A DNA stretch of 64,000 nt from Candidatus Aminicenantes bacterium (GCA_963729855.1 CAVSPT010000005.1:1271221-1335220); one strand, 5' to 3'; shown: positions 1 to 28,797, counted from the stretch's first letter. The notes: generated from the sequence alone by a model not told the origin. Numbers and translations: made by a program.

Positions 1-275
1 GATTCTACTCTTTCCTCGGCCCGGATTTTAGAACGAATCCCAAGTCGGGACGGCTTGCTCCCGGAAAAAAGCTTGTCTTCATCCTGACGCAGGGCAATCC
101 CGATGAGCAGACTTATGCTGCTGTCCTGGCCCGGCACCGGCTGACATTCGACATGTGCGGATTCGCGGAGGTGTATCCGGTCCAGGTCTGTGGGGCACGG
201 CCAGGAGGCGAAGCGCAAGTCCCGGAGAGAACCATGGCCCGGCTTGCCGAGGTCGCTAAGGCCCTCCTCGCCTGA
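1..275 (+). CDS. 3' end of a CDS that starts upstream of the window (…GKKLVFILTQGNPDEQTYAAVLARHRL…KALLA*); product unknown, possibly flavodoxin-like
   Basis: Open frame from the window edge to TGA at 273-275. Not in the ORF track because it has no start codon inside the window. The flavodoxin-like guess rests on weak motif resemblance only. Confidence 0.3.
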   Translation, partial: FYSFLGPDFRTNPKSGRLAPGKKLVFILTQGNPDEQTYAAVLARHRLTFDMCGFAEVYPVQVCGARPGGEAQVPERTMARLAEVAKALLA

Positions 276-547
276 AATGAAAAAGGGGCTTATCATCCCC
301 GACCCCAATTTCGAATCAGGCTATAATTGCGGAAAAGGATGTTGAGCACGAATTTTTCGCAAATTTCTCGACTGCTTTAAAGTCCGATCTCCTTATAATC
401 CGAGCAACTGCTCCGCATTGCCATTGGTGATTCGCTCCAGATCGGCCTTACTCACCGGGAGCTTGTCCAGGAAAGTCCGGCCCTCCGCCATCGAAGCGTA
501 GGGATGGTCGATCGAGAACAAGATCCGGTCCGCTCATCAGTCCAGCC

Positions 548-813
548 AAAATACCTTTCGTGTTACCTTTCGTGTTGAGACCACTAAACGGCCTTTTTTA
601 GGGTATTTTGACTCTTTTGAAAACGGGCCAAACTCGGGCATAAAATTGACCGATGAAAAAACTTAACTTACGCATTGATAAGGGGATAGTAGCGGACGGG
701 GCTTGTGCCGGAGGAGGGAATCGAACCCACACATCCATCGCTGGATACGGGATTTTGAGTCCCGCGCGTCTGCAAGTTTCAACAACCTCTAATTGATTGA
801 TCCTGAGCGGCGA
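548..813. repeat. Direct repeat copy 1 (~266 bp) containing a tRNA-Leu-like 3' fragment
   Basis: Matches 5926..6191 at roughly 90% identity in the same orientation. The two copies diverge only in a ~20-nt internal stretch. Confidence 0.85.
706..765 (-). other. 5'-truncated tRNA-Leu(CAA)-like pseudo-tRNA (anticodon arm, long variable arm, T-arm and 3' acceptor strand only)
   Basis: Minus strand reads cggga-cTcaaaa-tcccg (anticodon CAA), then a long variable hairpin atcca-gcga-tggat, then a GTTCGATTCC T-loop, then 3' acceptor CTCCGGC-A. No complementary 5' acceptor strand (GCCGGAG) and no D-stem are present. Confidence 0.4.
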
Positions 814-1002
814 GAAAATGGACCTTCCGCCAAGGGGGTTGTGTTAAAATATGCGCCCGTCTGATGATTCATTTTGGCGACCGTTTGGGTGAGCTAAATA
901 CGAAGAAGCGGTCTATGCGGAATATCTGGTAGTCCCCCAAATGGGCGGACGCTGAAGAGCGCACCTTTTATAAGAAGGGCCGGCAAGGTCCGAGGAGGTC
1001 GA

Positions 1003-1851
1003 GTGACGAGGCAATGGGCCGTTTTATCGCTGATCCTGGCCGTCGTGACGGTGTTCGTCGTCCCCGGCTTTACCAAAGACACGGTTGTCGAGAGCAAGTG
1101 GGCGTCGGCTCCCATCAAGATCGAAGGCCTTAAGCAGGACTGGCAAGATTCGACGTTCCTGACCGACGGCGGGTCGAAGGCGCAGTATGCGCTGAGGAAT
1201 GATGGAGAAAACCTATATGTCATCTTTCTCTTCAAGGATCGCATGTCCCCGTCGACGATCGAGTTCACGGGCCTGAAGGTCTTCTTCAACGGCGAAGGCA
1301 AGAAAAGCGAGGACCTCGGCGTCCACTTCAAGAAAAAGCGCGTCACGGCCGACGCCCTGATCGCTTACAAGGAGCAAAAGGGAGAGGCGTTGACCGATGC
1401 CGGGAAAACCGAGATCCGGAAAGAGAGCATGTACACGCTTTTCGAGGCTGACATCATCAACGAGAAAAAGGCGACGGCGCCGGCCGACCCGGCCGTGCAG
1501 ACCGACCCTCCGATCTTCATCACCGGCTTTCAGGACAAGGTCCTCATCTATGAGCTCCGGATCCCCCTTAGCCGAACGAACCAGCCCGGCGGTATCGGCG
1601 CGGAGCCGGGCAAGACGATCAAGCTCGGCTTCGAGTGGGGAGGGATGACCGCGCAAATCATGAGGGACATGATGGCCGGGAAGGTCGCGGAGGGCGGCAA
1701 GGCCGATCATGATCTCGGAATTGACGAGGGTATGGGGGCCGAAATCGATACCACCGGCGCCCTGCAGAGCGGCGGTGAGTATCGCCGCGATCCCCGGACA
1801 AGGATGCATTCCTTCTGGATCGACGTGAAGTTGGCCGCCCAGCGCTCTTGA
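1003..1851 (+). CDS. Secreted hypothetical protein (N-terminal signal peptide)
   Basis: GTG start with RBS GAGGAGG at 992-998. Hydrophobic N-terminus MTRQWAVLSLILAVVTVFVVPG. No recognisable domain. Confidence 0.6.
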   Translation: MTRQWAVLSLILAVVTVFVVPGFTKDTVVESKWASAPIKIEGLKQDWQDSTFLTDGGSKAQYALRNDGENLYVIFLFKDRMSPSTIEFTGLKVFFNGEGKKSEDLGVHFKKKRVTADALIAYKEQKGEALTDAGKTEIRKESMYTLFEADIINEKKATAPADPAVQTDPPIFITGFQDKVLIYELRIPLSRTNQPGGIGAEPGKTIKLGFEWGGMTAQIMRDMMAGKVAEGGKADHDLGIDEGMGAEIDTTGALQSGGEYRRDPRTRMHSFWIDVKLAAQRS

Positions 1852-2237
1852 AGCTGCCTCCGACCTGTGAAGTGAAAAATCTCGGCTCAACGGCCTCCGG
1901 AGCCGGCGGCCGACAACCCAAAGAGCTGTGGGGACGGAAGCGATTATAGGCCCGCCGGCCTCTTCCGGATCCGGGCCTTCCTCGGCCTCAACCTCGTCGA
2001 ACGTATATCCGCAACTCAAAGATCGATACATATGGCATTTCCGCTCTCTGGATGGCTCGCCTACAGATTGCTCCGCACAGCGCGCTCGGAGACTTGACGC
2101 CACGGCAGTTTGTCGAACAGAGATGAAGCCAAAAAACTCCATTTTTTGCTGGGCCAGTTTTTGGGTGAGGCTCCGAACGAATTCGATGCGGTGAAAATAA
2201 TCTATTTTTTAAGGGTGTATGATCGGTTTGCTAAAAA

Positions 2238-2573
2238 TTATACTTCATCAACGTGTTTGTTGTGATCTGTTTTTGTCATTTCAAAGATCCAAATATTAGT
2301 AAATTCTTCGAGAACAATCTTAGCCATTATGGTTGATTTTTCTTTGGTACAACACGGACATGCTTCTTTTAATCTCGGCTGGGATGCTTCTAGAGTGGAT
2401 TTGAGCAATACATCGAAACATTCGTCATATTCTTTACGATATGTGGCGGCATAGGTGTTTATCCATTCACTAACTGCCTCAGGACCGGGATCGCGTCCAA
2501 TTTTAATCCCCTTGAACCATTTGTGTTTAAGAGCTTCTTGTATCTGATTTCTCATTAATGTCTTCATGTCCAT
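2238..2573 (-). CDS. Small hypothetical protein (111 aa, Cys cluster C..CPCC) in an AT-rich islet
   Basis: ATG start preceded by GGAGG. Local GC is about 40% against about 67% for the window. No recognisable family. Confidence 0.5.
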   Translation of the reverse strand: MDMKTLMRNQIQEALKHKWFKGIKIGRDPGPEAVSEWINTYAATYRKEYDECFDVLLKSTLEASQPRLKEACPCCTKEKSTIMAKIVLEEFTNIWIFEMTKTDHNKHVDEV

Positions 2574-2800
2574 AGGCGTACCTCCGGCTGCTTAGTACAT
2601 TTTATCATTATTCTCAGGTGGACCCCATTATCTGGACAACGGAAAGGCTTGATTAAGGTGGATATTGAGCCCGCCGTATTTGTCATTTTAACTATTTCTA
2701 TATCCAGAAGCCATTTTCCCGTAGATCGCCGGAAAAATGTCTTCGCTAATTGACCTACAAACGGCGATCTAACGACAATCCATATCAAACCCTCGAGCAA
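2564..2800 (-). CDS. Doubtful small ORF (TTG start) overlapping the 5' end of the 111-aa gene
   Basis: Listed in the ORF track. It has no ATG and a weak start context. It lies in the AT-rich islet. Confidence 0.2.
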   Translation of the reverse strand: MLEGLIWIVVRSPFVGQLAKTFFRRSTGKWLLDIEIVKMTNTAGSISTLIKPFRCPDNGVHLRIMIKCTKQPEVRLWT

Positions 2801-2939
2801 AGGCCATCGCTATTAGCAAGAAAAAGCAAAGGCGAGTCGTCAAGGAGAAAAGAGAGCGGCGCCGGCGGCTGAATAATGATTTCTAAACTGTCTGACGTCA
2901 GCGAAATTCGGACAGCGATTGCTTTCTCCTAAGCTGAGG

Positions 2940-4620
2940 CTCGGACCTTTGATTGACGTCAACTATTATTTCCGGCCCGTTGCCTCAATCAAAAATGTTA
3001 CTGAAGAATCGGCGCCTTGTCGAGGCTTATTGGAGTAGCCTCGGCCGATACTTCAGATGCGTTTTGTCCGCCGAAGACAAGACCTCTTGCCATCACATGA
3101 CGCCAGGCTCTGACCCTGCGCTGCAAAGTTCGTAGTTGCACGTCTGGAAAGCGTCCCGGCTGCTCTGTTTGGAGACGCACGAACAGTTCCTTGGCTGTGG
3201 CGTCTGGCGTATCTTGGAGCCAAAGAAGGACATCCGGCCAAACCGATTCAAACGGGTCCTTACGGGTGCGCCAATAGTGAGGCGTCTTAGGGAAAGTACG
3301 ATGGGTAGCGCGGACTTCCCCCTGTCGCCATAGCTCTCCCAGTTGTTGCATAAACTGCTCAAGGCTCTCGCGGCCCGGCCCCGATGCCGAGGTGTCACGG
3401 CAGGCTAATGCCGCCAACACTTCCTGCTGTTGCCGAATCCGATGAAGCATGGCTACCGGGTCAACGGACCTACCTATTAGCTTAAGCGACTTCTTTATAT
3501 CATCGGGCACGGCCGGATGGCCTAAGAGCCGTTCGCAGGGCGTCATCGGCTTCTCGTAATAACGTCTGACCTTTGCGGCTATCTTTTCCTTTTCCCGCAA
3601 CTTGAAGGACGGTTGGAAATGGTTTACGTAAAGCCGGACGGCCTGATAAAGGGTTGCCAGGGCTTGGCCGGCGACGATTCCCGTGAACCGATCATGGCCA
3701 ACAAACCTTCGGATAACGGCCCCGTTCTTCTGTTCTATCCAAGCTTGATCGTTCTTCCGATAGGCCCGGGATCTTGTGAACTCGATGTGTTTTCCCTGGC
3801 AATAGTCGAGTAGCGTGTCGTTGATGAACGCGCCATCATTATCGGAATCGATTCCCAGGATGGGGAAGGGAAACTGTCGGCTAATCACATCGAATGCTTC
3901 CACAACCAGTTCCTGGCTTCTAGCAAGAAGAGGAACGCTTTCTACCCAACCCGAGCAGATGTCGACCGCAACCAGACTATAGATATAAGCTCCAGCCGTC
4001 GAGCCGCCGTTATGCTCGACAAAATCAATCTCCAGATATCCAGGCGGCGGGTCATTCCAGTCGGAAAAGGTTCTAACTCGGATACTACCGCTCGGTTTTT
4101 TAGGCCTTCGCCGTTTCCGTTTGCCGGGCTTGGCTTCTTTTCGTACCGGCTGCAGGAGCCTGTCTAGGGTTGAAGCACTCGCTGCCAAAAGACATCTCCG
4201 CACTTCCGGATCGGGCTGCAGATGGCCAAATCGCTCCATCGCATCTACCAGAGCCGGCAAAATGGACTTCAGTCTCTTCCCGCATATCCGATCTCCAGCC
4301 TCCCATGCGATAACCAGAGCCTTCCGGACCGCTTCATTATAAATGCGGAGGCCGTATCCCCGCTTAAGCCCATGCTCAGCAGGGGGCGAGTTGAGGAGCC
4401 GAACGGCATGCTTTCGATGGAATCCCGTCAACGCTTTGAACTCATCCAATATCTTGGTCTTTTCCATCTTCGATGAGAGCCGATAACGTCCACTTAGAGC
4501 TCCGACGAGCTCTACCCTTGCCCTCTTGCTGATCCGAGTTGACATCGTTGCTCTCCTTTTTCGGTAACATTGAATTGAGGCAACGACATGATCTCAGTAA
4601 CAAAATAGTTGAGTCAATGC
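2940..4620 (-). mobile_element. Insertion sequence (~1.68 kb) with ~60-bp imperfect terminal inverted repeats and a single transposase gene
   Basis: Left end 2940-2998 (…tgattgacgtcaactatt…cgttgcctcaatcaaaaatgttac) is the reverse complement of right end 4570-4620 (gtaacattgaattgaggcaacg…aaatagttgagtcaatg), with a few mismatches and indels. The element encloses the 2998..4545 transposase. Confidence 0.55.
2998..4545 (-). CDS. DDE transposase, rve/integrase-core superfamily (IS481/ISNCY-like; family uncertain)
   Basis: N-terminal HTH-like region. Catalytic triad candidates are EIDFVEH, then DSDNDGAF about 65 aa later, then IEQKNG about 35 aa after that (D-D-35-E spacing). Confidence 0.8.
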   Translation of the reverse strand: MSTRISKRARVELVGALSGRYRLSSKMEKTKILDEFKALTGFHRKHAVRLLNSPPAEHGLKRGYGLRIYNEAVRKALVIAWEAGDRICGKRLKSILPALVDAMERFGHLQPDPEVRRCLLAASASTLDRLLQPVRKEAKPGKRKRRRPKKPSGSIRVRTFSDWNDPPPGYLEIDFVEHNGGSTAGAYIYSLVAVDICSGWVESVPLLARSQELVVEAFDVISRQFPFPILGIDSDNDGAFINDTLLDYCQGKHIEFTRSRAYRKNDQAWIEQKNGAVIRRFVGHDRFTGIVAGQALATLYQAVRLYVNHFQPSFKLREKEKIAAKVRRYYEKPMTPCERLLGHPAVPDDIKKSLKLIGRSVDPVAMLHRIRQQQEVLAALACRDTSASGPGRESLEQFMQQLGELWRQGEVRATHRTFPKTPHYWRTRKDPFESVWPDVLLWLQDTPDATAKELFVRLQTEQPGRFPDVQLRTLQRRVRAWRHVMARGLVFGGQNASEVSAEATPISLDKAPILQ

Positions 4621-4782
4621 GCCGGGAATTTTAATTGTCGCTGATCAGACCTTGCCCAAATCGACGATTTTGAGTTTACCGGCGGCGTGCCCCCATCCGA
4701 ACGAGATCAGGTAGACGGCCAAGAGGATCAGGACCGATCCTAGCGCGCGCGGCGGAAAGGCTCGAGCATGGGCATCCGGCGA

Positions 4783-5832
4783 TCACCTCGGACCCTTTGC
4801 GGCTGCACCGCCGCTGATCCTCCCCACGAGGAAGTCTTCGAAACCGCCCAGATCCTTCCACTCCATGGCGCAAAGCATGGCTTTCCCCGCCGGATCGATC
4901 CGAGTGAAGCCATCGTCGGTGACCCGGATCGTCAGGTTCTCCATAATGCAGAAGTCCTTCTCTTTCGCCAGAGCGAGGTAGACCGCCACGGTGTCGAAGA
5001 GCGTTGTGGACTCCCGGTCGGCGTCGGCGGCGTTCTTTCCTAGCCAAATACGGTACGTCTCAAGGAGCGCCCGCGCTAGGGGATCCTTCGAGCGGCGCAG
5101 CGCCGCGTACCTCTCCCCGCGGATGGTAACCAAGCCGCAGGTATCGAGGGGCGTTATGGTCATCGGCCAGGCGGCGGCAAAGGCCCGCTGAGCGGCCGGG
5201 ATGCCGGCTTTGATGTTCCACTCGGGATCCGGGTCCCTCTTCCCTCCATAGCCCCTCCGCACGCTGCCGTCCATGCCGACGAACCGCGCGTGCTCCGCAA
5301 TCCGCGGCTCCCGCTCGAGCGCGGCGGCGATCGTCGGAAGCGGACCGATGCAGATGAGGATGATCGGCTCTCGGGAACCCATCAGGAGATCGATCAAGGC
5401 CTGGACACCGTCCCGGTGTACTTTTCCGGGATACTTTGCCAGGTCGTAACCCTTGACCCAGCCCGCTTGACCGCCTTCACCGGTTACGCCCGTCACCTCG
5501 GGGCCGAGCCCGATTGGGATGCCGCTCCGGCCAGCCGCATCGAGAAGCTTCGCGGTCACTTTAGCCCGATAGAGGGGCTTCCCGTAGTCCGTGACGACGA
5601 GCTTCAGGTCTAGCTCGGGGGAACGAAGGAGGAGGGCCAGAGCCCAGGAGTCGTCGATGTCATCCCCGATGTCCGTAACCAGGATCGCCGGGGCGCCGCG
5701 CGCGGGCTTCTCAAGATCGCCAGGATTCCCGGCTGTTCCGGCGCCCTCGAACACGCGGTGAATCGCGTTTCCCGTGAGCATCAAAGACACAACGGCGATG
5801 GGGAGAATGAGAATGCGCCAGAAACAGATCAT
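4783..5832 (-). CDS. Inosine-uridine-preferring nucleoside hydrolase (IUNH family), secreted
   Basis: N-terminal aspartate cluster DIGDDIDDSWALA, typical of IU-nucleoside hydrolases. Signal-like N-terminus MICFWRILILPIAVVSLMLTG. ATG at 5832 with GGAGGAG RBS. The track ORF extends to 6108 only because the upstream repeat happens to be open in that frame. Confidence 0.8.
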   Translation of the reverse strand: MICFWRILILPIAVVSLMLTGNAIHRVFEGAGTAGNPGDLEKPARGAPAILVTDIGDDIDDSWALALLLRSPELDLKLVVTDYGKPLYRAKVTAKLLDAAGRSGIPIGLGPEVTGVTGEGGQAGWVKGYDLAKYPGKVHRDGVQALIDLLMGSREPIILICIGPLPTIAAALEREPRIAEHARFVGMDGSVRRGYGGKRDPDPEWNIKAGIPAAQRAFAAAWPMTITPLDTCGLVTIRGERYAALRRSKDPLARALLETYRIWLGKNAADADRESTTLFDTVAVYLALAKEKDFCIMENLTIRVTDDGFTRIDPAGKAMLCAMEWKDLGGFEDFLVGRISGGAAAKGPR

Positions 5833-5925
5833 ATTCGCTCCTCCCCTGGATTCGGGCGAGCCCGAGAGAGGCGGGTTGACCCGCCTCCTGCTTAGTGTAC
5901 CACCCGTTAAGTGAAAGTTCGAGGT

Positions 5926-6191
5926 AAAATACCTTTCGTGTTGCCTTTCGTGTTGAGAGCGTAATACGGCCTTTTTTAGGATATTTTGACTCTTTTGAAA
6001 ACGGGCCAAACTCGGGCGCAGAATTGACCGATGAAAGAACTTAACATACTCATTGATAAGGGGATAGTAGCGGACGGGGCTTGTGCCGGAGGAGGGAATC
6101 GAACCCACACATCCATCGCTGGATACGGGATTTTGTGTCCCGCGCGTTTTCCATACTCAACACCCTCTAATTGATTGATCCTGAGCGGCGA
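5926..6191. repeat. Direct repeat copy 2 (~266 bp) containing a degenerate tRNA-Leu-like fragment
   Basis: Paralog of 548..813. The anticodon-loop position 33 is A in this copy rather than U. Confidence 0.85.
6084..6143 (-). other. Degenerate tRNA-Leu(CAA)-like 3' fragment (copy 2)
   Basis: Same arm pattern as 706..765 but with the loop cAcaaaa. The 5' half is absent. Confidence 0.35.
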
Positions 6192-6460
6192 AAGTCTCCG
6201 TCTTCCCGTCTTCACGAATTGGCAATCGATACTTGATCTACTTGAAAATCTCCCGGATTTGTTCCAGCCGATACAAGATCTTTGGTTGGGCAAAAAGAGT
6301 TATAAGATTTTTTACTTGAGCGCGCAGCTTTTTTTCCTTTAATATCCGTCGTTTCCTCAGTTCTTGATTTAAGCCAGCCTATACCGGAGTCGATTATTTT
6401 GACGCTCAAATGTCAAATGGGCGTCAAAGGGCATCTAGTTTATTACCCCCGAGGAGGGAA

Positions 6461-6985
6461 TTAGAAGTTGAGTTTTGTTTCCCATTGACCGAGATTAAAA
6501 TATCCCCCCGGGGAACTGATTTTGTAGAGGATGTACAATAAACCATACAAACCGGCGATGATTCCCAACACCAGTAAGATCGTCATACCGGTGTCTGACC
6601 TACGCACGGTGACCAATTTAACTTCGGAAAGGGGAATGCTTAGCGGAGGCAGGACGATCTTTTCACCTTCTCTTTTCCCTTCGATATCATGAATCGTGCG
6701 TCCGTCTTTGGTTGTGATTTCATAAACCAGGCCCTTGCCGTCTTGTCTGAAACCCTTGACGTCGCTCAAAGCGACGGTGTTGATTTCGATGACGAGCCGG
6801 TCGCCGATGATTCGGGCCGGGTTTTCCTTGGAAAATTGCATGGATTCTCCGGATATTCTCGTCAGCCCCACGATCTGGTCCTTGCTGGCAACGGACGTCA
6901 CCGGAACGTTGGTGATGCTGAGGCAGGACCAGTCAAAAAGCAAGAACGCCACGACCGTCACAAGACTTAAAACTCTCTTGGACAT
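6461..6985 (-). CDS. Hypothetical membrane-anchored protein (N-terminal signal or anchor, C-terminal TM)
   Basis: ATG with GGAGGG RBS. Hydrophobic N-terminus and a C-terminal TM segment ILLVLGIIAGLYGLLYILY. Confidence 0.5.
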   Translation of the reverse strand: MSKRVLSLVTVVAFLLFDWSCLSITNVPVTSVASKDQIVGLTRISGESMQFSKENPARIIGDRLVIEINTVALSDVKGFRQDGKGLVYEITTKDGRTIHDIEGKREGEKIVLPPLSIPLSEVKLVTVRRSDTGMTILLVLGIIAGLYGLLYILYKISSPGGYFNLGQWETKLNF

Positions 6986-7402
6986 GCTTCCCTCCGCTTG
7001 CTGAATAAATTACTATCCGCATCGCGCCGCTCTGTCAACCCAAGTGTGGAGGCCTTACTCAAAAGTGAATTCCCAGCCCGGTCGAGCCGCGAGAAGCAAC
7101 GCCTGATCGAGATCTCAAGACGGTCAAAAATGGGCTTGCATATTAAAAAAGTCGCTGACAAGAATTTCAGATGGGAGACGTGATGATGACCGCCATTGAG
7201 CGGCAAAGTCCCTCCTTCATTTGAGCGCAACTTGACATCATCACAGGCCGCAAATTAGGATTGCCGAATGGATGCCCATTCCCCGATCCGGGGGAAAATC
7301 CGTCTCTTGCCGCAAGTTCAGATCCGCACGGCGGTGGAGGGAATCAGGCTGTTCGGCTGATCAAGCCCGACGTCCTGATAGGACGTCCAAAAAGGAGCGA
7401 AC

Positions 7403-10400
7403 ATGAACAGGAACACCGCAAGAACCGCCATCACTCGCCGCTGGATCCCGGTCTTCGCCTTCGTCCTGGCGGTCGGGATGACGGCGGCCTTCTCGCTGCC
7501 GCAGGCCCAAACCGCCGCCAAGAAGGCCATGACTGTCGACGATTACGCCAAATGGCGTGATATCGCCAGCCGGGAGATCTCGGGAGACGGCGGGTGGGTC
7601 GCCTACGTCCTCCAGCTGACCAACACCATCCCGGCCGAAGCTAAGCCGGTCCTGCACCTGCTGAATCTGGAGACCGACGTCGAGACGACGGTGAACGACG
7701 CGTCGGATCCGGCCTTCTCTTCGGACTCGAAGTGGATCGCCTATCAGGTGGATCCGGGGGCCGCTCAACGCGCGCGCGCCGCCCGGACCGGCTCCGGTGG
7801 AACGCCCTCGACGCAGCCGGCCGCGCCTCCGGCGACTCCGCCCGTGCCCGCTCCGGCTGAAGCCCCCGGCACGCAACCGGGTCAGGGCCAGACCGGCCGC
7901 GGGGCGGCGCCGGCGGCCATCCCTCCGCGACGCGTCGAACTGCGCAATCTGAAGACCGGAGCGGTGCGCTCCTGGCAGGATATCGGGACCTTCGCCTTCG
8001 CCCCGACCTCCACCCATCTCGTCCTCCGCCGCCGCGGCGCCGAAACGGCCGGTCCCACGGGCCAGAGAGGCGGTGGCGGGCCGCAGGCGCCGGTCGGAGG
8101 CGCCGGGTCTGCGAGCGCGGCCGCCGGGTCGCGCGGGCAAGACGCCATTCTGCTGGATTTACGGACAGGGAGCTTCCAGTTTCTCGGAAGCGTGGGCGAC
8201 TTCGCGTTTAACCGCAGCGGGGAGCTTCTCGCCTTCACCGTGGATGCCGCCGTGAAGGACGGCAACGGAGTCTTTGTCTTCGACACGCGCAACGGGCGCG
8301 TGACACCGCTCGACAACGATGCCGAGATCTACAGCCGGTTGGCCTGGAACGATGACGGCACGGCCATCGCCGCGCTCAAGGGGAGCGAAGTCGAGAAAAT
8401 GCGCGAACGGAACAATGTGCTCGTCGCCTTTCCGGACATCCCCGCGGCGTTGAAGGACGGAGCCGGCGCACCCCTGGCGGTTGTCCTCGACCCTGCCAAA
8501 GCGGACGGCTTTCCAAAGGGCTGGATCGTCAGCGACCGGGCCGCCCTCGCCTGGAGCGAGGACAACAATCGCGTGTTCTTTGGCATCAAGGAGCAGGTGC
8601 CGGCGCCCGAAACGACGCGCAAGTCGACGGACGAAGTGGCCGACGTCGACGTCTGGAACACGGGAGACGAGAGGGTCCAATCCCTCCAAATGGTCCGCGC
8701 CGAACAGGAGCGCAACTTCACCTTCCGCCAGGCCTTCGACCTCTCGGCCAAACGGTTTGTCAGGCTCGCCGACGAGACGATGCGGGAGCTCGACGTCGCC
8801 CCGGACGGCAAGTGGGCCGTGGGATTGGATGCGCGTGCCTATATCCGCAACGAAAAGATCCTGCCGACGGCGGACATCTATCGTGTGAACACGTCCACCG
8901 GCGAGCGGACGCTCGTCGCCAAGGGCCAACTGACCGGCCGGCACACGTTCGGCATCTCCCCCTACGGCCGGCATTTCCTCTTCTGGAAGGACAACACGAT
9001 CCAGGCCTACGACTTCGAAGCAGGAACGACGAAGGCCCTCGGCGCCGGCGAGGTCAGCTTCGTGGACCTCGAGGACGACCACCCGGGGACGAAGCCGTCC
9101 TATGGCATCGCCGGCTACTCCAGCGACGGCAAGGCGGTCATCGCCCAGCACCGCTACGATTTGTGGCTCGTTCCCTTTGACGGCAGCGCGCCGAAGAACC
9201 TGACCCGCGGCGCCGGGGCCAAGAGCGAGATCCGCTTCCGCATCCTCCGCCCCGTGCCGGCGGACCCGACTCTTCCCCGCTCGGTCGGTCCCCGCGGGAC
9301 CATCGATCTCTCGAAGCCGGTCACTTTGTCCGCCTACGGCGAATGGACGAAGAAATCCGGATATTATGAGCTCGCGGGCGGGCAATTAAAGGAACTCATT
9401 TATGAAGACGCTTCGTTCAGCAACCCGGTCCGGGCGATGAAGGCGGACCGCTTTCTCTTCACCCGCCAGACGTTCGTCGAGTTTCCGGACCTCCGCGTTT
9501 CCGGTTCGAGCTTCCGGGAATCCAGGAAAATCTCCGACGCCAACCCGCAACAGAAGGACTATCTGTGGGGCCATCGCCTGCTTTTTGACTACAAGAACAA
9601 GGACGGTGTGAGGCTGCAGGGCATCCTGGCCATCCCGGACGATTACAAGCCGGGCGAAAAGCGGCCCATGCTCGTCATCTTCTACGAGAAGAACTCGCAG
9701 AACATGCACATGTACAGCGCCCCGGCCTATCTTCCCAGCATGGGACGGATGCCGGTCCAGGCGGTCAGCAACGGCTACCTGTCCATGCTGCCGGACATCC
9801 ATTTCCGTACCGGCTCCTCGCACACCGATATGCTGGAATGCGTCGAGGCGGCCACGCGCAAGGTCATCGAGATGGGCTACGCCGATCCGAAGCGCATAGG
9901 CGTCTCCGGACACAGCTACAGCGGAGAAGGCGCGGCCTTTATCGGGACGATGTCCAAGATGTTCGCCGCCGTCGGAATGGGGGCCGGCGTCGTCGACCTG
10001 TACAACGATTTCAGCATGCCCTGGGGCTGGGGATACGGCTACCAGGGCGGGAGCGGCGATACCGCGTTCCAGTACTACCTCTACGATCAGGGCCGCTGGG
10101 GTTTCTCGCCCTGGGACCGGCCCGACCGATACTATTTCGAGTCGGCCCTCACCCATGCCCCGAACGTGAGCGCGCCGTTCCTCATCATGCACGGGACGGC
10201 CGATCCGACCGTCGGCTTCATCAACGGACTCGCTTTCTACAACGCTCTGCGCTACAACGGCAAAAAGGCCGTGCTGCTGGCCTATCCGAACGAGGGCCAT
10301 GGGCTGCGCGGATTGGCGAACCGAAGGGACCTGACCATCCGGTTCTTCGAGTTCTTCGACCATTACCTCAAGGGTGCGCCGGCGCCGAAGTGGCTGACCG

Positions 10401-10441: not shown

Positions 10442-10584
10442 ATCCTTGTCGAGGGCCGGCGGAAGGAAGATCATCGCTTCCGTCCCCACGGATCTTTGGG
10501 TGATCGACCGCCGGCTCCAGGGGCCTTGGAGCCGCGGTCTCTCATTTCACAGGCGGTCCATTCAAGGAGGGCGGGTCAATTCTC

Positions 10585-11310
10585 ATGGGTTCGATGCTGT
10601 TCGAGGTCAAAAACCTTTCGAAGCGATTCGGCCGGATCGCCGCGCTGGCGGACGTCAGCTTCCACGTGCGGTCGGGCGAAGTGCTTGGGCTGATCGGTCC
10701 CAACGGCGCCGGCAAGTCGACGCTGTTCGAGTGCGTCGCCGGAGTTTTGCCGTCCGACGGCGGGACGATGAGCGCCGGCGGCCGGCCGGTGGGGGCGCGG
10801 GAGCGCCGTTCCCTCCTCTTTTACGTTCCCGACGGAATCACGCCGTGGCCGGCGCAGTCCGTGGGCTGGGCGCTCGATTTTACAATCGGGTTTCTCGGTG
10901 GCCGGTCGGATCTTCGCCGGGACGTGGTCGAGCGTCTCGACCTCCGGGAGTTGCTGCGCCAGCCGATCGGCACGCTCTCGAAGGGCCAGCGGAAGCGCGC
11001 GCTTCTCGCCGTAGGCTTGCTGACGCGCCAGCCGGCGCTGCTCATCGACGAGCCCTTCGAGGGTCTCGACCTGCGCCAGGCGCGCGACATCGCGGCGGCG
11101 TTCCGGGCGCACGTGGCCGGGGGACGGACGCTGTTTCTCTCGATTCACCAGATCGGCGATGCCGCGCGCTTCTGTGAGCGGTTCGTTCTGCTCAGCGGCG
11201 GGCGGATGTGCGGCCAAGGCACCGTCGAGGAACTGGCGGCCCTGGCGGCCGCGGGGAATGTGTCGGGCCCGTCCCGGGACCTGGAAGAGGTGTTTCTTGC
11301 GCTCACCTAG
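10585..11310 (+). CDS. ABC transporter ATP-binding protein
   Basis: Walker A GPNGAGKST, ABC signature LSKGQRKR, Walker B LLIDEPFEGLD. Confidence 0.85.
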   Translation: MGSMLFEVKNLSKRFGRIAALADVSFHVRSGEVLGLIGPNGAGKSTLFECVAGVLPSDGGTMSAGGRPVGARERRSLLFYVPDGITPWPAQSVGWALDFTIGFLGGRSDLRRDVVERLDLRELLRQPIGTLSKGQRKRALLAVGLLTRQPALLIDEPFEGLDLRQARDIAAAFRAHVAGGRTLFLSIHQIGDAARFCERFVLLSGGRMCGQGTVEELAALAAAGNVSGPSRDLEEVFLALT

Positions 11311-11329
11311 GTCCGCGTTCCTGTGGCTG

Positions 11330-12625
11330 GTGGACAAGGAATTTCACGGACTGATCGCGTCCCGGGCCTGGTGGGTGCTGCTTCTCGCCATGGGACCGCT
11401 GGTGGGCGTGTCGTTCATCAGCGCCGTTCGGACCTACGCGGAAGTGAGCGGCCTGAACGGAACGGCGGCCGGCGTCGGCGAGGCGTTGTCGCCGCTGACC
11501 GGAGTCTGGGCCCCGACGTTCAGCGCCTGCGAGCTGGCGGCGGTCTTCCTGCTGCCCTTTGTGGCGATTCGTCTCGTGGCCGGCGACCGGCAAAGCGGCG
11601 CCCTCAAGCTCGAACTTCAGCAGGGGATGTCCCCGTTTACGCGCATCACGGCGAAGGCGCTGGTTCTGCTGGCGGGCTGGCTGGCGGCGATGCTGCCGCC
11701 CTTGAGCGCCGTCCTGTTGTGGAAAAGCTACGGAGGCGGCGTCTATCCGCCGGAGCTGGCCGCGCTGGCGGTCGGCCACGTGCTCAACGCCGGGCTGACC
11801 ATCGGGCTCGCTGCGGCCATGGCTTCGCTGACCGAGCATCCCTCGACGGCGGCGATCCTGACGCTCAGCGTGACGGTCGGCACATGGATCATCAATTTCT
11901 TCGGCGCGGTGCAGGGCGGCTTGTGGGAACGCGCCGCCGGATACACGCCCGCCGCCATGGTGGCCGAGTTTCAGCACGGACTGGTGAGGCTGGACACCGC
12001 GCTCATCTCGCTCGTGCTGATCGTGACGGGCCTCGGCCTGGCGGCGGTCTGGATGCGCCTGGGCGTACCGGTGAAGCGCCGGCTGTTCGAATCGGCCGGC
12101 GTCGGCGTGCTGGCGGCGGGCGGCCTTTTCGCCTGCACGCTCCTGACCGCGAGTTGGGACGCGTCGGAGAGCCGAAGCAACTCGTTCTCCCGGGCCAACG
12201 AACGGGCGCTCCGGCAGATCCAGGCGCCGCTGCGCATCGAGGCCCATCTCGCGCCGGAGGATCCGCGGCGGGCCGATCTCGAGCGCCGGGCGCTTTCGAA
12301 GCTGCGTCGCGTCATGCCCAAGCTGCGCGTGACATATGTGTCGGCCACGTCGATCGGGCTTTTCGAGCAGACGAGGGCCGGTTACGGCGAGATCTGGTAT
12401 GAGATGGGCGGGCGGAAGACGATGGGGCGCGCGACGACGGCCGAAGGCGTGCTCGAAGCGATTTACGCGCTGGCCGGCGTCGCGCCGCCTCCCGGGAGCG
12501 AGGAGGCGGTTTTTCGCGGGCATCCCCTCGCCGTGCCGGCCAAAGGCGCTGCGGCCCTGTTTTATGGACTCTGGCCGGGGTTGATTCTGGCCGGCGGAAT
12601 CTTTGCACAAAGGAGAACAAAATGA
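11330..12625 (+). CDS. ABC-2 family permease with a C-terminal GldG-like (auxiliary component) extension; start codon uncertain
   Basis: Six predicted TM segments downstream of the ATPase gene. The C-terminal ~150 aa loosely resemble the N-terminus of GldG. The track ORF (11159..12625) overlaps the end of the ATPase; GTG at 11330 and the downstream ATG are alternative starts. Confidence 0.6.
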   Translation: MDKEFHGLIASRAWWVLLLAMGPLVGVSFISAVRTYAEVSGLNGTAAGVGEALSPLTGVWAPTFSACELAAVFLLPFVAIRLVAGDRQSGALKLELQQGMSPFTRITAKALVLLAGWLAAMLPPLSAVLLWKSYGGGVYPPELAALAVGHVLNAGLTIGLAAAMASLTEHPSTAAILTLSVTVGTWIINFFGAVQGGLWERAAGYTPAAMVAEFQHGLVRLDTALISLVLIVTGLGLAAVWMRLGVPVKRRLFESAGVGVLAAGGLFACTLLTASWDASESRSNSFSRANERALRQIQAPLRIEAHLAPEDPRRADLERRALSKLRRVMPKLRVTYVSATSIGLFEQTRAGYGEIWYEMGGRKTMGRATTAEGVLEAIYALAGVAPPPGSEEAVFRGHPLAVPAKGAAALFYGLWPGLILAGGIFAQRRTK

Positions 12626-13422
12626 ACGTGGTTGCGCGAAGCGGATGGATTTTCCTGACCGCCGTCGTCCTGGCCGCGACGTCCGGAGCGGCGGAGATAA
12701 AAGTCGATCTCAGCAAGGAACAGGCCGGCCAGCCGCCGGTCACGTTCGAACCGATGGTCGGAACCTGGGTTGTCGCCCAGGACGGCGGCGAGAACGTGAT
12801 CATGGTCGACGGCCGGCCGTGGGTGGCGAGCAAGGACAATCCCACGAAGCTGCTGCTGCAAACGGCGCGCAAGCTGTACGGCACGTCGAACGAAGAGCTG
12901 ATGGACAACGCGAAACAGTTCGCCTACTATCCCGTGGCGGTCCTGAAGAACGTGGAAAATTTTTCCGACGGCACGATCAGCATGAAATTCAAGACCGTGG
13001 CCGGCGACTCGGACCGCTGTTCGGGCATTCTCTTCAATGTGAAGCCGAACGGCGATTGGCTGGCGGTCCGCTACAACGACACCGAAAACAACGTCGCGCT
13101 GTGGGAATTCCACTACGGCATCCGGCGGAGCGTCAAGTTCAGCGACCGGTCCAAGCCGTTCATGCTGGACCGGAACGCCTGGCACGAGCTGAAAATGACG
13201 GTGGACGGGGCCGAATTCAAGGCCTGGCTCGACGGGGCTTTGGCCCTGGAGTACACGCTCGGCAGCGAGCCGCAGGCCGGGAGGAGAGGCCTGCCGAACG
13301 CCGATTTGTCCCCGGCCAACAACCCGGTGCTGCGTCCGCCGGTCGCCGGCAAGGTCGGTCTGTGGTCGAAGACGGACAGCACCAGCTACTTCAAGGATTA
13401 TGCCGTCAGCCCTCGGAAGTGA
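12622..13422 (+). CDS. Secreted DUF1080-like (concanavalin-like fold, 3-keto-disaccharide-hydrolase family) protein
   Basis: RBS AAGGAG. Signal peptide. Resembles DUF1080 motifs (GTWVVAQDG…, NAWHELKMTVDGAEFKAWLDG). Confidence 0.5.
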   Translation: MNVVARSGWIFLTAVVLAATSGAAEIKVDLSKEQAGQPPVTFEPMVGTWVVAQDGGENVIMVDGRPWVASKDNPTKLLLQTARKLYGTSNEELMDNAKQFAYYPVAVLKNVENFSDGTISMKFKTVAGDSDRCSGILFNVKPNGDWLAVRYNDTENNVALWEFHYGIRRSVKFSDRSKPFMLDRNAWHELKMTVDGAEFKAWLDGALALEYTLGSEPQAGRRGLPNADLSPANNPVLRPPVAGKVGLWSKTDSTSYFKDYAVSPRK

Positions 13423-13653
13423 AGCCGGGCGCGGCGCCTCAGCCGCCGCGGCTTTTTCCGGCGCTCGTATTCGCCTCCTTTCCTTGACCCCCGCCGTGAA
13501 TCGACGATACAATCGGAGCTTCAACATGACAACGGATTCAGCGGCCGGAGCACGAAATCGCCTCGCCGCGGTAAAGGAAAAATCCGTTGATTGGACGGGA
13601 TCGGCCGATCGGTGAAGTCCTTTCGGCCTGGTCCGTTGAAAGGAAGACGGCCC

Positions 13654-15894
13654 ATGAAGGTTCTTTCAAGATGGATTTGGATGATGGCCCTGGTTCCCTG
13701 GTTTCCGGGCGGCGGGGCGCAGGCTCAAAATGCCCCCCCGGAGCGGTCCCTGGAAAAGCAGTTCGATTCCCATCTCTCGCCGGCGGACATGAAGGCCAGA
13801 CTGGAGCGGCTCAGCGCGCGTCCCCATCATGTCGGCTCCCCGTATGACAAGGAAAACGCCGAGTTCATCCTTTCCCAGTATAAAACGTGGGGACTCGACG
13901 CCCGCATCGAAGAGTTCAGCGCCTTGTTTCCGACTCCCAAGACGCGCCTCCTGGAGATGATATCTCCCGTCCGGTACACGGCGGTCTTGAAGGAGGCGCC
14001 GCTGAAGGAAGATGGGACTTCGGGCCAGGTTGCCGAGCAGCTGGCGACCTACAACGCCTACTCCATCGACGGCGATGTGACCGCCGACCTCATCTACGTG
14101 AATTATGGAGTTGTCTCCGACTACGAGGAGCTCGAGAGGATGGGGATCGATGTCCGGGGCAAGATCGTCATCACCCGTTACGGCGGATCCTGGAGAGGGA
14201 TCAAGCCGAAACTGGCCGCCGAGCACGGAGCGATCGGTTGTCTGATCTATTCCGATCCGAAAGACGACGGTTTCTACGTCGGCGATGTCTATCCCAAGGG
14301 CGCCTGGAGAAACGAATTCGGCGTCCAGAGAGGCTCGGTCGTGGATATGCCCGTCTACCCCGGCGATCCGTCGACGCCTTTTGTCGGGGCGACGCCGGGC
14401 GTCCGGCGCCTTTCCGTCAAAGACATCAAGGTCCTGACGAAAATACCGGTTCTTCCGATCTCCTACCGTGACGCTCTTCCCCTGCTCCAATCCCTGACCG
14501 GGCCGGTCGCCCCGGATCATTGGAAGGGGGCTCTGCCCCTGACCTATCATGTCGGGCCGGGACCGGCCAAGGTCCATCTGAAACTGGAGTTCAATTGGGA
14601 CATCAAGCCGATCTTCGACGTCATCGCCATGATCAGGGGGAGCGTCTACCCCGATCAATGGATCATCAGGGGAAATCACCATGACGGCTGGGTGAACGGG
14701 GCGGAGGATCCTCTCAGCGGACAGGTGGCGACGATGGAGGAGGGCAAGGCGCTTGGCGAGCTGGCCCGAAGCGGCTGGAGGCCGAAACGGACCATTGTTT
14801 ATTGCGCCTGGGACGGGGAAGAGCCGGGATTGATCGGCTCCACGGAATGGGTGGAGACCCACGCCGACGAATTGCGGCAGAAGGCGGTCGCCTATATCAA
14901 TTCCGATTCCAACGGGCGGGGGTTTTTCTTCGTCGAGGGATCGCATACGCTCCAGCATTTCATCAACGACGTCGCCCGGGACGTCACCGATCCCGAAAAG
15001 CACATCAGCGTCTGGCAGAGGGCCCGGGCGGCCAGGCTCCTGGCCGGCTCTCCCGGGGAGAAAATGAGCATCCGGTCCGCAAAGGATTTGGAGATCGGGG
15101 CCCTGGGATCGGGTTCCGATTTCACTCCCTTCCTTCAACACATCGGCATCGCTTCCCTGAATATCGGCTATGGCGGTGAAAGCGAAGGAGGCGCCTACCA
15201 TTCCATTTACGATTCTTTCGATCATTTCATGCGCTTCGGGGATCCGACCTTCGCCTACGAGGTCGCTCTGGCCCAGACGGGCGGGCATGCGGTCATCCGT
15301 TTGGCGGACGCCGATATCCTTCCCTTCAACTTCTCGGATTTCGCGGAAACCGTGTCCGGGTATTTGGGCCAGGTCAAGGCCCTGACTCAGACCATGAGGG
15401 ATGAAACGCTCGAATTGGACCGGGAGCTCCAGGACCATGTGTTCGCCGATGTCGCCGATCCGGCCAAGACCTTTCGGGCCCCCGAAGCCCAGGACCCGGT
15501 TCCGTATCTGAATTTCGCGCCGCTCGAAAACGCCGTCAGCACTCTCCGCAAGAGCGCGGAGGAATATCGGAAAGCGGGGCACGACCTGGAGGAAAGCGGG
15601 CGGAAACCGGCCGCCGACCAGCTCTTGCGTTTGAACGAGATCATCTTCAGGACCGAACGGGCGCTGACGAAGCCTGAAGGATTGAAAGGACGTCCCTGGT
15701 TCATCCACGAAATCTACGCCCCGGGCCTCTACACGGGCTACGGCGTGATGACGCTTCCGGGCGTCCGGGAGGCGATCGAACGGCGGCAGTGGGACGAAGC
15801 CGACCGGCAGATGATCGTCGTCGGGAAAACGCTGGAGGCCTATTCCCTCGAAATCCGTCAGGCGACGGCCATCCTCCAATCCGCGCTGAAATAG
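13654..15894 (+). CDS. M28-family peptidase, glutamate carboxypeptidase II / transferrin-receptor-like (PA domain + M28 + dimerisation domain)
   Basis: HHDGWVNGAEDPLSG and WDGEEPGLIGSTEWVE match the GCPII zinc-site motifs (HRDSWVFG…, WDAEEFGLLGSTEW). Signal peptide MKVLSRWIWMMALVPW. ATG at 13654 with AAAGGAAG RBS. Confidence 0.8.
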   Translation: MKVLSRWIWMMALVPWFPGGGAQAQNAPPERSLEKQFDSHLSPADMKARLERLSARPHHVGSPYDKENAEFILSQYKTWGLDARIEEFSALFPTPKTRLLEMISPVRYTAVLKEAPLKEDGTSGQVAEQLATYNAYSIDGDVTADLIYVNYGVVSDYEELERMGIDVRGKIVITRYGGSWRGIKPKLAAEHGAIGCLIYSDPKDDGFYVGDVYPKGAWRNEFGVQRGSVVDMPVYPGDPSTPFVGATPGVRRLSVKDIKVLTKIPVLPISYRDALPLLQSLTGPVAPDHWKGALPLTYHVGPGPAKVHLKLEFNWDIKPIFDVIAMIRGSVYPDQWIIRGNHHDGWVNGAEDPLSGQVATMEEGKALGELARSGWRPKRTIVYCAWDGEEPGLIGSTEWVETHADELRQKAVAYINSDSNGRGFFFVEGSHTLQHFINDVARDVTDPEKHISVWQRARAARLLAGSPGEKMSIRSAKDLEIGALGSGSDFTPFLQHIGIASLNIGYGGESEGGAYHSIYDSFDHFMRFGDPTFAYEVALAQTGGHAVIRLADADILPFNFSDFAETVSGYLGQVKALTQTMRDETLELDRELQDHVFADVADPAKTFRAPEAQDPVPYLNFAPLENAVSTLRKSAEEYRKAGHDLEESGRKPAADQLLRLNEIIFRTERALTKPEGLKGRPWFIHEIYAPGLYTGYGVMTLPGVREAIERRQWDEADRQMIVVGKTLEAYSLEIRQATAILQSALK

Positions 15895-15910
15895 CGGAAG
15901 CCGTTCCCGC

Positions 15911-18670: not shown

Positions 18671-19029
18671 GGCGGTCCTCCTTTCAAGCCCCGTCGGGAG
18701 ATTCGGTCCATGAAAGTCCAAGGACGAATTATGTCGGTATTGAATATGATCGTCAATATTGGCCTAAGGAGGCGACCGGATCCATTCTCTCCAAACGCGC
18801 TTTTTCCCGAATCTTCAGCCCCACCCCCTCTAGGGGTGAGGAGAGGTTAATAAATTTCACCATCCCAATACTCGGCGCCGGTGATTGACCGGACAAGCCG
18901 ATGGAACGACAATCCCTTCGTGAAAAACGAAACCTTCGTCTTTCTATTGCGTTCGATTCGGGCGGAGAGAAATTCCCCTCCCGCGAGCGTCTTTTTCTTG
19001 GGGAGAGGCCCAGATAGTGCCAATTATTG

Positions 19030-19058
19030 TTGACAAAAAATGTCATATCGGTTAATTT
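19030..19058 (+). promoter_or_regulatory. Sigma70-like promoter upstream of pilB (TTGACA-17-TAATTT)
   Basis: -35 TTGACA at 19030-19035, 17-nt spacer, -10 TAATTT at 19053-19058. pilB ATG at 19079. Confidence 0.35.
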
Positions 19059-19078
19059 TAATCATAAGAGAGAGATAA

Positions 19079-26122: not shown

Positions 26123-26647
26123 ATGCTTAAGAAAGAGAAAGGCTTCACCCTCATCGAGCTGCTCATCGTTGTGGCGATCATCGGCATCCTGGCCGCTCTG
26201 CTCATCCCCAACGCCATGACCGCTCTGCAGAAGGCGAAAGTCCGCGGCACCCAGAAGGACATCGCCACCATCGCCACGTCCCTGGCCGACTATGTCACGG
26301 ACCACGGCGTGCCGTTCGCGGAGAACGGGAACATCGACGCCACGGGCAAGGCCGCCCTGTCGCCGATGTACATCAAGGTGCTGCCGTTGAACGACCAGTG
26401 GGGCACGCCCTTCAAGGTCTACACGGGCGTCAACTGCAACCAGTACGGGATCACGGGCTCGGCCACGGACGACTTCCTGGTCGCCTCGTACGGGCGCGAC
26501 GCCACCATCGAGTCCTGGACGTACAATGCGGCCACGCCGGAAGCGGGGCTGTACCAGATATCGACCACGGCGGACTTCAACAAAGACCTGGTCAATCTGG
26601 ACGGATCGTTCATTCGCGGACCTCGGGCCGGCGTCTCCGCCACCTGA
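26123..26647 (+). CDS. pilA: Type IV pilin (prepilin with class III signal, N-methylation site)
   Basis: The N-terminus KGFTLIELLIVVAIIGILAA is a classic prepilin-peptidase site. RBS CAGGAGG. Confidence 0.85.
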   Translation: MLKKEKGFTLIELLIVVAIIGILAALLIPNAMTALQKAKVRGTQKDIATIATSLADYVTDHGVPFAENGNIDATGKAALSPMYIKVLPLNDQWGTPFKVYTGVNCNQYGITGSATDDFLVASYGRDATIESWTYNAATPEAGLYQISTTADFNKDLVNLDGSFIRGPRAGVSAT

Positions 26648-26670
26648 TCTTCAAACGGAACGTTCCTCCG

Positions 26671-28257: not shown

Positions 28258-28779
28258 ATGAAACGCGAAAGCGGATTCACGCTCATTGAGCTGCTCATCG
28301 TTGTGGCGATCATCGGCATCCTGGCCGCTCTGCTCATCCCCAACGCCATGACCGCTCTGCAGAAGGCGAAAGTCCGCGGCACCCAGAAGGACATCGCCAC
28401 CATCGCCACGGCCCTGGCCGGCTATGTGACGGACCACGGCGTGCCGTTCGCCGAGAACGGGAACATCGACGCCACGGCCAAGTCCGCCCTGTCTCCGATG
28501 TACATCAAGGTGCTGCCGTTGAACGACCAGTGGGGCACGCCCTTCAAGGTCTACACGGGGGCCAACTGCAACCAGTACGGGATCACGGGCTCGGCGTCGG
28601 ACGACTTCCTGGTCGCCTCGTACGGGCGCGACGCCACCATCGAGTCCTGGACGTACAATGCGGCCACGCCGGAAGCGGGGCTGTACCAGATATCGACCAC
28701 GGCGGACTTCAACAAAGACCTGGTCAATCTGGACGGATCGTTCATTCGCGGACCTCGGGCCGGCATCTCCGCCACCTGA
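28258..28779 (+). CDS. pilA: Type IV pilin paralog (about 95% identical to 26123..26647)
   Basis: Same prepilin leader/N-terminus (GFTLIELLIVVAIIGILAA). Differs from copy 1 at about 10 residues. RBS GAGGAGG. Confidence 0.85.
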   Translation: MKRESGFTLIELLIVVAIIGILAALLIPNAMTALQKAKVRGTQKDIATIATALAGYVTDHGVPFAENGNIDATAKSALSPMYIKVLPLNDQWGTPFKVYTGANCNQYGITGSASDDFLVASYGRDATIESWTYNAATPEAGLYQISTTADFNKDLVNLDGSFIRGPRAGISAT

Positions 28780-28797
28780 TTCTGAGACGCGGCTGTG

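Follow-up and report, generated by a model that had tools for sequence, protein, structure and literature searches.

Near the left end of a 64,000-nucleotide stretch of DNA from a Candidatus Aminicenantes bacterium (GCA_963729855.1, CAVSPT010000005.1:1271221-1335220), which was analysed whole and is called the window below, two direct repeats of 266 bp each carry a dead copy of a tRNA-Leu(CAA) gene. Read from left to right, the locus comprises the C-terminal part of a flavodoxin-like gene, what is left of an Amidohydro_2 gene, the first repeat (unit 1), a gene for a hypothetical protein of 282 amino acids (hyp282), a stretch of low guanine–cytosine (GC) content, an insertion sequence (IS), a nucleoside hydrolase gene, the second repeat (unit 2), a gene for a hypothetical protein of 174 amino acids and an S9 peptidase gene. 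From 7.4 kb to 64 kb, the window holds housekeeping DNA (type IV pilus genes, ComEC, EF-G, LeuRS, RibBA, RecJ, LptD). The repeats and their parts are as follows.

548-813, minus strand: repeat unit, copy 1 (blastn); a 22-nt leader, then 7 nt where the acceptor strand is degenerate or replaced, then positions 8-73 of tRNA-Leu(CAA), then a 3' flank of 158 nt
5926-6191, minus strand: repeat unit, copy 2 (blastn and alignment); same orientation as copy 1, start-to-start distance 5378 bp
705-793, minus strand: tRNA-Leu(CAA) pseudogene, copy 1, called by ARAGORN -ps only; anticodon, variable and T arms and 3' acceptor strand intact, 5' acceptor strand ATTAGAG or TAGAGGT
6085-6170, minus strand: tRNA-Leu(CAA) pseudogene, copy 2, called by ARAGORN -ps only; D-arm region more degenerate than in copy 1, A at position 33
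673-757 and 6051-6135, minus strand: 85-nt block, 100% identical in both copies, from the anticodon to 33 nt beyond A73
553-576, minus strand: tandem 12-mer AACACGAAAGGT, two units, at the distal end of the repeat; partner at 5931-5954 with one mismatch

The two repeats were aligned by blastn without gaps at 92.1% identity (E=2e-109), at exactly the coordinates proposed by an earlier sequence-only reading of this DNA, which had put their identity at about 90%. Repeat detection returned the same pair as 541-813 and 5919-6191 (91% identity), and no third copy was found in the window by self-comparison. The units are paralogous copies of one non-coding 266-bp segment centred on the dead tRNA-Leu(CAA) copy, and the outer boundaries of both copies are identical on either side of the tRNA part. 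Contigs assembled from the short reads of ERR11594402 were 100% identical to the window and are independent evidence for the unit edges at 813/814 and 5925/5926, which rules out assembly noise as the source of the units; these contigs end inside the repeat units and do not cover the long-range order.

The copies differ at 21 positions (10 transitions, 11 transversions), which form about 10 clustered events. The biggest clusters affect the D-arm region and two places within the 3' flank, and between the clustered changes blocks of 28, 85, 36 and 33 nt are conserved. An identical block of 85 nt has P=0.0045 if the 21 differences are independent, and P=0.21 if each cluster counts as a single event. 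As the block is not significant once the clustered differences are taken as events, we downgraded it as evidence of constraint, for which it is suggestive only.

The tRNA-Leu(CAA)-derived part and the flanks of the units

On the minus strand, each copy reads ACGCG CGGGA-C[U/A]CAAAA-UCCCG, a 17-nt variable arm, GUGGG-UUCGAUU-CCCUC and CUCCGGC-A, followed by CAAGCC; no CCA follows A73 in either copy. The minus-strand anticodon arm with CAA, the long variable arm, the T arm and the 3' acceptor strand described in the sequence-only reading were recovered both in the sequence and in the alignment. The reference consisted of 120 native tRNA-Leu(CAA) genes from JGI metagenomes with the same anticodon stem and acceptor, the closest of which were aligned to the units. 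Homology to the native genes extends over tRNA positions 8-73, including degenerate remnants of the D arm. The earlier reading was therefore right about the 5' acceptor strand, of which 7 nt are lost or degenerate, but not about the D stem, which it had considered absent.

Over positions 8-27, copy 1 agrees with the native genes at 18 of 20 positions and copy 2 at 13 of 20. G10 is changed to T in both copies, a change which is therefore older than the duplication, while G18 is mutated in copy 1 and the universal U at position 33 is an A in copy 2. The U50-U64 mismatch in the T stem is not a defect, because intact native genes (L079, L086, L129, L133, L084 and L141) have it too. Relative to the native genes, the 3' two-thirds of the tRNA part are without defect apart from A33 in copy 2, and the damage lies in the 5' third. 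The sole missing piece of the tRNA is the 7-nt 5' acceptor strand, which reads TAGAGG(T/G) in register, where native genes have GCCGGAG. Shifted by 2 nt it reads ATTAGAG, which retains the purine/pyrimidine pattern of GCCGGAG and is four transitions away from it. The strand has either been replaced or has decayed.

Matches of 80 nt with 82-91% identity to many native tRNA-Leu(CAA) genes were obtained with blastn, and in a phage collection the tRNA part matched annotated phage tRNA-Leu genes. With homology, the CAA anticodon, a class II variable arm and A73 all present, the sequence is derived from tRNA-Leu(CAA), as a pseudogene. Neither copy is a functional tRNA gene or able to fold as a tRNA. 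ARAGORN at default settings found no intact tRNA gene of any kind in the 64-kb window, and in the relaxed -ps mode, the pseudogene search that the earlier reading had called for, it reported both copies as tRNA-Leu(CAA). In the printed fold, that of copy 1, the acceptor stem has three Watson-Crick pairs, two G-U pairs and two mismatches, and the D stem is weak. There were no Rfam matches at gathering thresholds; the best sub-threshold match was tRNA-Sec (21 bits, E=1.1). Caution is needed in annotation, since relaxed tRNA callers report two false tRNA-Leu(CAA) genes here.

Beyond the tRNA part, the unit consists of 29 nt on the 5' side of position 8 and 158 nt on the 3' side of A73. Within the window, exact copies of the 12-mer AACACGAAAGGT are confined to the distal ends of the two units, some 130 nt away from the tRNA end. 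The tandem is a candidate protein-binding site, of the arm type or an operator; that of copy 2 lies about 100 nt upstream of the start codon of the nucleoside hydrolase gene. The flanks were without relatives in the collections searched. A 23-mer, TCCCTCCTCCGGCACAAGCCCCG, over the junction of the tRNA 3' end and the trailer had no matches in GTDB species genomes, JGI metagenomes or IMG/VR, and a 28-mer from the trailer had none in viral contigs. When the whole unit was compared with phages and plasmids by blastn, the tRNA part alone matched. The non-tRNA flanks had no match in about 1.3 Mb of related loci and none among the 120 native tRNA-Leu(CAA) loci, and no relative carrying the unit was found in GTDB genomes, JGI metagenomes or IMG/VR.

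Inspection of both copies revealed neither terminal inverted repeats nor target-site duplications. A miniature inverted-repeat transposable element or another non-autonomous transposable repeat was rejected on these grounds and on copy number, with two copies in the window and none in the related loci. The predicted RNA fold of the units did not stand out from shuffled controls (z = +0.55 and +0.94), so that neither extra fold stability nor an Rfam match at threshold marks a structured non-coding RNA. No minus-strand promoter-like site was seen in or near the unit. None of the small open reading frames (ORFs) within the units matched a recorded protein, and a plus-strand ORF of 47 amino acids in the unit is the usual antisense-to-tRNA artefact. 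The units are without evident function of their own today.

Genes around the units and their counterparts in relatives

The ORFs of positions 1-7000 and about 40 ORFs from the remaining window, some 50 in total, were scanned with Pfam. The features found next to and between the units are the following.

396-530, minus strand: C-terminal remnant of 44 amino acids of an Amidohydro_2 protein (Pfam PF04909, profile positions 240-289 of 289, E=0.005, below the gathering score)
814-1865, plus strand: hyp282 module; a 190-nt upstream region and a conserved Aminicenantes protein of 282 amino acids (coding sequence 1003-1851)
2100-2950, minus strand: low-GC stretch, 38-43% GC at about 2100-2850; ORF of 111 amino acids at 2238-2573
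2951-4650, minus strand: IS of the ISNCY family, ISBj12-like; transposase of 515 amino acids (2998-4545) with an rve (DDE) domain
4783-5862, minus strand: nucleoside hydrolase module; coding sequence 4783-5832, IU_nuc_hydro, hydrophobic N-terminus
6461-6985, minus strand: hypothetical protein of 174 amino acids, to the right of unit 2; homologues elsewhere in relatives

No Phage_integrase, Resolvase or Recombinase domain was detected in the ORFs scanned, small and unselected ORFs lying outside the scan. The Pfam scans and the default ARAGORN search agree with the sequence-only reading, which had noted that no integrase was present and that both tRNA copies were partial. Its inventory of the interval, namely a secreted-like hypothetical gene, a stretch of about 40% GC, an IS and a nucleoside hydrolase, was likewise recovered from Pfam, the GC profile and the N-termini.

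The Amidohydro_2 remnant stops within 20 nt of the edge of unit 1, so a gene was broken at the unit 1 junction (about 530-547). The hyp282 protein had no Pfam match and has an N-terminal hydrophobic, signal-like segment (judged by eye). The ORF at 2238-2573 in the low-GC stretch had no family match. The ends of the IS are approximate, its terminal and subterminal inverted repeats being imperfect. The rve protein was considered as a tRNA-targeting recombinase and rejected, since it is an ordinary transposase, ISNCY/ISBj12-like, of which hundreds of relatives are found on plasmids. On a metagenome contig (L105, 1-1500), an intact tRNA-Leu(CAA) gene has, about 50 bp upstream, a transposase homologue of 37% identity whose terminal repeats are similar; this is probably a coincidence, the IS family being widespread on plasmids.

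Six relatives with S9 peptidase genes 91-95% identical to that of the window share sequence with it only from 7205-7378 rightward, and in none of the six were the window's left-hand genes present within 10 kb. In three of them (L003, L005, L006), tRNA-Pro(TGG) and tRNA-Arg(TCT) genes are located 200-500 bp upstream of the S9 peptidase gene. At the site of this pair, the window (6986-7210) has no tRNA, and synteny starts at 7205-7210. The left 7 kb therefore lie on the far side of a tRNA-associated breakpoint.

The closest relative of the nucleoside hydrolase gene (84% nucleotide identity) was found on a 1.03-Mb JGI contig (L057), where homology to the window ends at 5862. An intact tRNA-Arg(TCG) gene (9794-9870) is situated on that contig 130 nt upstream of the nucleoside hydrolase gene and in its orientation, the very position at which unit 2 with its dead tRNA-Leu sits in the window. 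The closest hyp282 gene (L060, 86% nucleotide identity over 816-1865) becomes homologous three bases from the edge of unit 1 and has IS remnants upstream. The edges of the units thus coincide with rearrangement breakpoints (816, 5862 and about 530-547). Further homologues of hyp282, the nucleoside hydrolase and the 174-aa protein occupy yet other neighbourhoods in relatives, and none of the relatives' genes next to hyp282 or the nucleoside hydrolase gene occurs in the window. The two conserved genes have different surroundings in each relative examined, and the interval is therefore no coherent cassette but a mosaic made up of conserved chromosomal genes, an IS and an orphan stretch. The arrangement is not conserved core genome, the outcome that would have spoken against the sequence-only reading.

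Two further ideas on this neighbourhood were discarded. The idea of unit 2 as the native tRNA site downstream of the 174-aa gene or upstream of the nucleoside hydrolase gene was dropped, as no tRNA-Leu is found there in relatives. A shared ancestral neighbourhood of hyp282 and the nucleoside hydrolase, linked through Peptidase_C69 genes on L057 and L061, was rejected because the C69 proteins are only 32% identical. The region of about 130 nt upstream of hyp282 (814-940) occurs twice in L060, at 9809-9940 upstream of hyp282 and, inverted and 6.7 kb away, at 3011-3141; it is either a further short repeated element or a conserved leader.

Origin of the units

Direct repeats of tRNA fragments around variable DNA are a textbook arrangement. 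The units resemble the attR-type partial tRNA copies left by elements with tyrosine integrases (islands, prophages, integrative and conjugative elements) in being truncated at the 5' end with a perfect 3' part, and in forming a same-orientation direct repeat that flanks an IS and a compositionally odd stretch in a non-syntenic region. They differ from such copies in several respects. A genomic island has a complete tRNA at one end (attL) and a partial one at the other (attR), whereas both repeats here are of the truncated kind, with no complete tRNA partner. Instead of a tyrosine or serine recombinase gene inside, the ORFs scanned yielded the rve (DDE) transposase alone, without any integrase. 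At 266 bp, the repeat extends in both copies beyond the tRNA part, by 29 nt on its 5' side and 158 nt on its 3' side, and the enclosed genes are ordinary chromosomal ones.

Tentatively, and with slightly less than even confidence, we favour the view that the units stem from a relic of an att-type site that was later doubled, and whose copies today lie at rearrangement junctions of a variable region with an IS. Partial tRNA copies usually come from the integration of an element at a tRNA gene, and fragments without a partner from later rearrangement (PMC9897764). The truncated copy here most likely began as a partial tRNA duplicate carried or left by an integrase-type element at a tRNA-Leu(CAA) gene. 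The original site, of the attP or attR type, would have combined a foreign arm with the tRNA identity block and with a flank in which binding motifs recur, and would then have lost the element and the partner tRNA by rearrangement. Later, the 266-bp segment may have been copied, or a second one may have arrived on another DNA molecule joined by RecA-type recombination, and about 10 mutational events would have followed the duplication. Put most simply, one orphaned att-type site, or else just a decayed tRNA-Leu segment, would have been copied as a 266-bp piece or have recombined with a second DNA molecule that bore the same segment.

An att-type origin fits the tRNA part because its 3' two-thirds are intact, bar A33, and its 5' third is damaged. 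It also fits because the break lies at or near position 7/8 with the repeated 12-mers about 130 nt from the tRNA end, and because the setting to the left of 7205 is IS-bearing and non-syntenic. Comparable 5'-truncated tRNA-Leu(CAA) fragments occur on L062, a viral contig of IMG/VR, and on L145, from a metagenome. On L062, a piece of a low-GC phage, no integrase is in view. The AACACGAA repeats on the 3' side of its tRNA fragment were compared with the 12-mers of the unit, and their likeness was taken as a coincidence.

Several observations weigh against this origin. Neither an integrase or recombinase among the 50 or so window ORFs tested nor an intact tRNA-Leu partner in the window was found. 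The two copies share sequence on either side of the tRNA part, unlike a simple attL/attR pair, and the element itself is untraceable because the flanks of the unit have no relative in any collection searched. The 85-nt core is not significant with clustered differences as events (P=0.21). Finally, ATTAGAG keeps the pattern of GCCGGAG, so the 5' end may be decayed, which favours a plain pseudogene.

A pseudogene duplicated without any mobile element is possible, though on balance unlikely. A dispensable native tRNA-Leu(CAA) locus would have decayed at its 5' end, and, while the region was being reshuffled, illegitimate or homologous recombination would have placed a copy of the 266-bp piece at a second site. 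The nearly full-length tRNA (positions 8-73), the possibly decayed acceptor strand with its four transitions, the lack of an integrase and of an att partner in the window, and a number of mutational events (about 10) consistent with neutral drift all agree with this course, and identical boundaries on both sides are what a copied segment should have. Damage confined mostly to the 5' third, by contrast, is not what neutral decay should leave behind, and it is a typical trait of att identity blocks; moreover, the flanks are common to none of the 120 native loci, and tRNA-Leu(CAA) genes are widely retained. A segmental duplication of a region with a pseudo-tRNA had been one of two proposals of the sequence-only reading, and it fits the paralogous copies, their identical boundaries, and the missing integrase and intact partner tRNA. 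The other, a decayed tandem integrative islet in which 814-5925 are the remains of an integrase-type element between two att sites, flanked on each side by the target or by a further element, finds no support in the form proposed and is improbable. Same-orientation tRNA 3' fragments around DNA with an IS and a low-GC stretch would suit it, as would the candidate arm-type 12-mers. The identical block, too, starts in the anticodon loop, the place of crossover for one class of tRNA-targeting integrases, which Williams is said to have described in 2002. However, no intact tRNA-Leu is present in the 58 kb on the expected attL side, and no integrase was found among the ORFs scanned. Unit 1 adjoins a broken amidohydrolase gene rather than a tRNA target, and from 7205 rightward the window is syntenic housekeeping DNA. 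The hyp282 and nucleoside hydrolase genes are conserved chromosomal genes found in different contexts in relatives, and not element cargo.

It is also conceivable, with a very low probability, that the units are functional elements, either a live recombination site served by a recombinase from elsewhere or a regulatory or small-RNA module upstream of a minus-strand gene, which for copy 2 would be the nucleoside hydrolase gene. Conservation in blocks of 28, 85, 36 and 33 nt between clustered changes and the location of the tandem 12-mer of copy 2, which precedes the start codon of the nucleoside hydrolase gene by about 100 nt, speak for such a role. Against it, copy 1 lies upstream of a fragment of a gene, none of the other genomes searched has the unit, its fold does not exceed shuffled controls and matches no Rfam family, and there is no minus-strand promoter-like site in or near it; two copies are too few for covariation. 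Any current function of the units is very unlikely. The narrower idea of live attP-like sites, with the tRNA-Leu identity block and arm-type 12-mers and a recombinase encoded elsewhere in the genome, has a slighter probability still. If it were true, the 5.4-kb interval would be an integrase-less islet moved in trans between non-tRNA chromosomal sites, a modestly interesting form of integrase-less mobilisation served in trans, and nothing found points that way.

The att-relic origin, which we prefer, has a close parallel in the orphaned tRNA fragments of Thermococcus (PMC9897764), which are likewise non-functional, without a nearby intact copy and located at synteny breakpoints. In that case, the full copy is identifiable elsewhere in the genome; here, the fragment itself is duplicated. 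The general idea of the tRNA copy as an att-type scar, already put forward from the sequence, is plausible. As a pair, the units also resemble low-copy dispersed repeats that recombine through RecA (deletion, duplication, Campbell-type insertion): the two direct copies are some 270 bp long, contain a perfect block of 85 bp, have sharp boundaries without target-site duplications or terminal inverted repeats, and bracket an interval of 5.1 kb. Here, however, recombination is predicted, and neither an empty site nor a circle junction was observed. The 5378-bp interval could be deleted or re-inserted by RecA through the 85-bp perfect block, the sole activity that we predict, and a deletion or circle polymorphism of this 5.4-kb interval would be expected.

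The locus is a new instance of a known phenomenon, unusual in that both copies are partial and the repeat is long, and nothing suggests a new mechanism. The units look like ordinary leftovers of mobile-DNA traffic and rearrangement rather than a working system. They offer a clean example of orphaned, duplicated tRNA-gene fragments that mark rearrangement junctions in the genome of an uncultured Aminicenantes bacterium, with little import beyond annotation.

Other repeats and variable segments of the window

The S9 peptidase gene stands in different contexts among close relatives, since L012 (1-23034), which carries the most similar one (95% nucleotide identity), has nothing else in common with the window on either side. 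An 8.6-kb block (10446-19077) encodes an ABC transporter, a 3-keto-disaccharide-hydrolase-like protein, an M28 peptidase and a BNR/sortilin-repeat protein. Its place between the S9 peptidase and pilB genes is taken in L003 and L005 by about 4-5 kb of DNA that shows no nucleotide similarity to it.

Another direct repeat of the window, 508 bp long and 97% identical (26141-26648 and 28273-28780), corresponds to two paralogous type IV pilin genes with the N-terminal methylation motif; they lie 2.1 kb apart, beside the pilB/T/C/S/R cluster. An element of about 84 nt on the 3' side of hyp282 (1864-1947) is an inverted copy (82%) of the sequence on the 3' side of the S9 peptidase gene (10470-10553) and occurs in other Aminicenantes contigs as well (L007, 2684-2747; L186, 363-467). 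It looks like a small dispersed intergenic repeat, which may be associated with terminators. Two intergenic stretches of 48-49 nt (5876-5923 and 2126-2174) are 83-94% identical to intergenic sequences of an Aminicenantes contig (L184, 7306-7352 and 12268-12316). These genomes seem to be rich in small shared non-coding elements.

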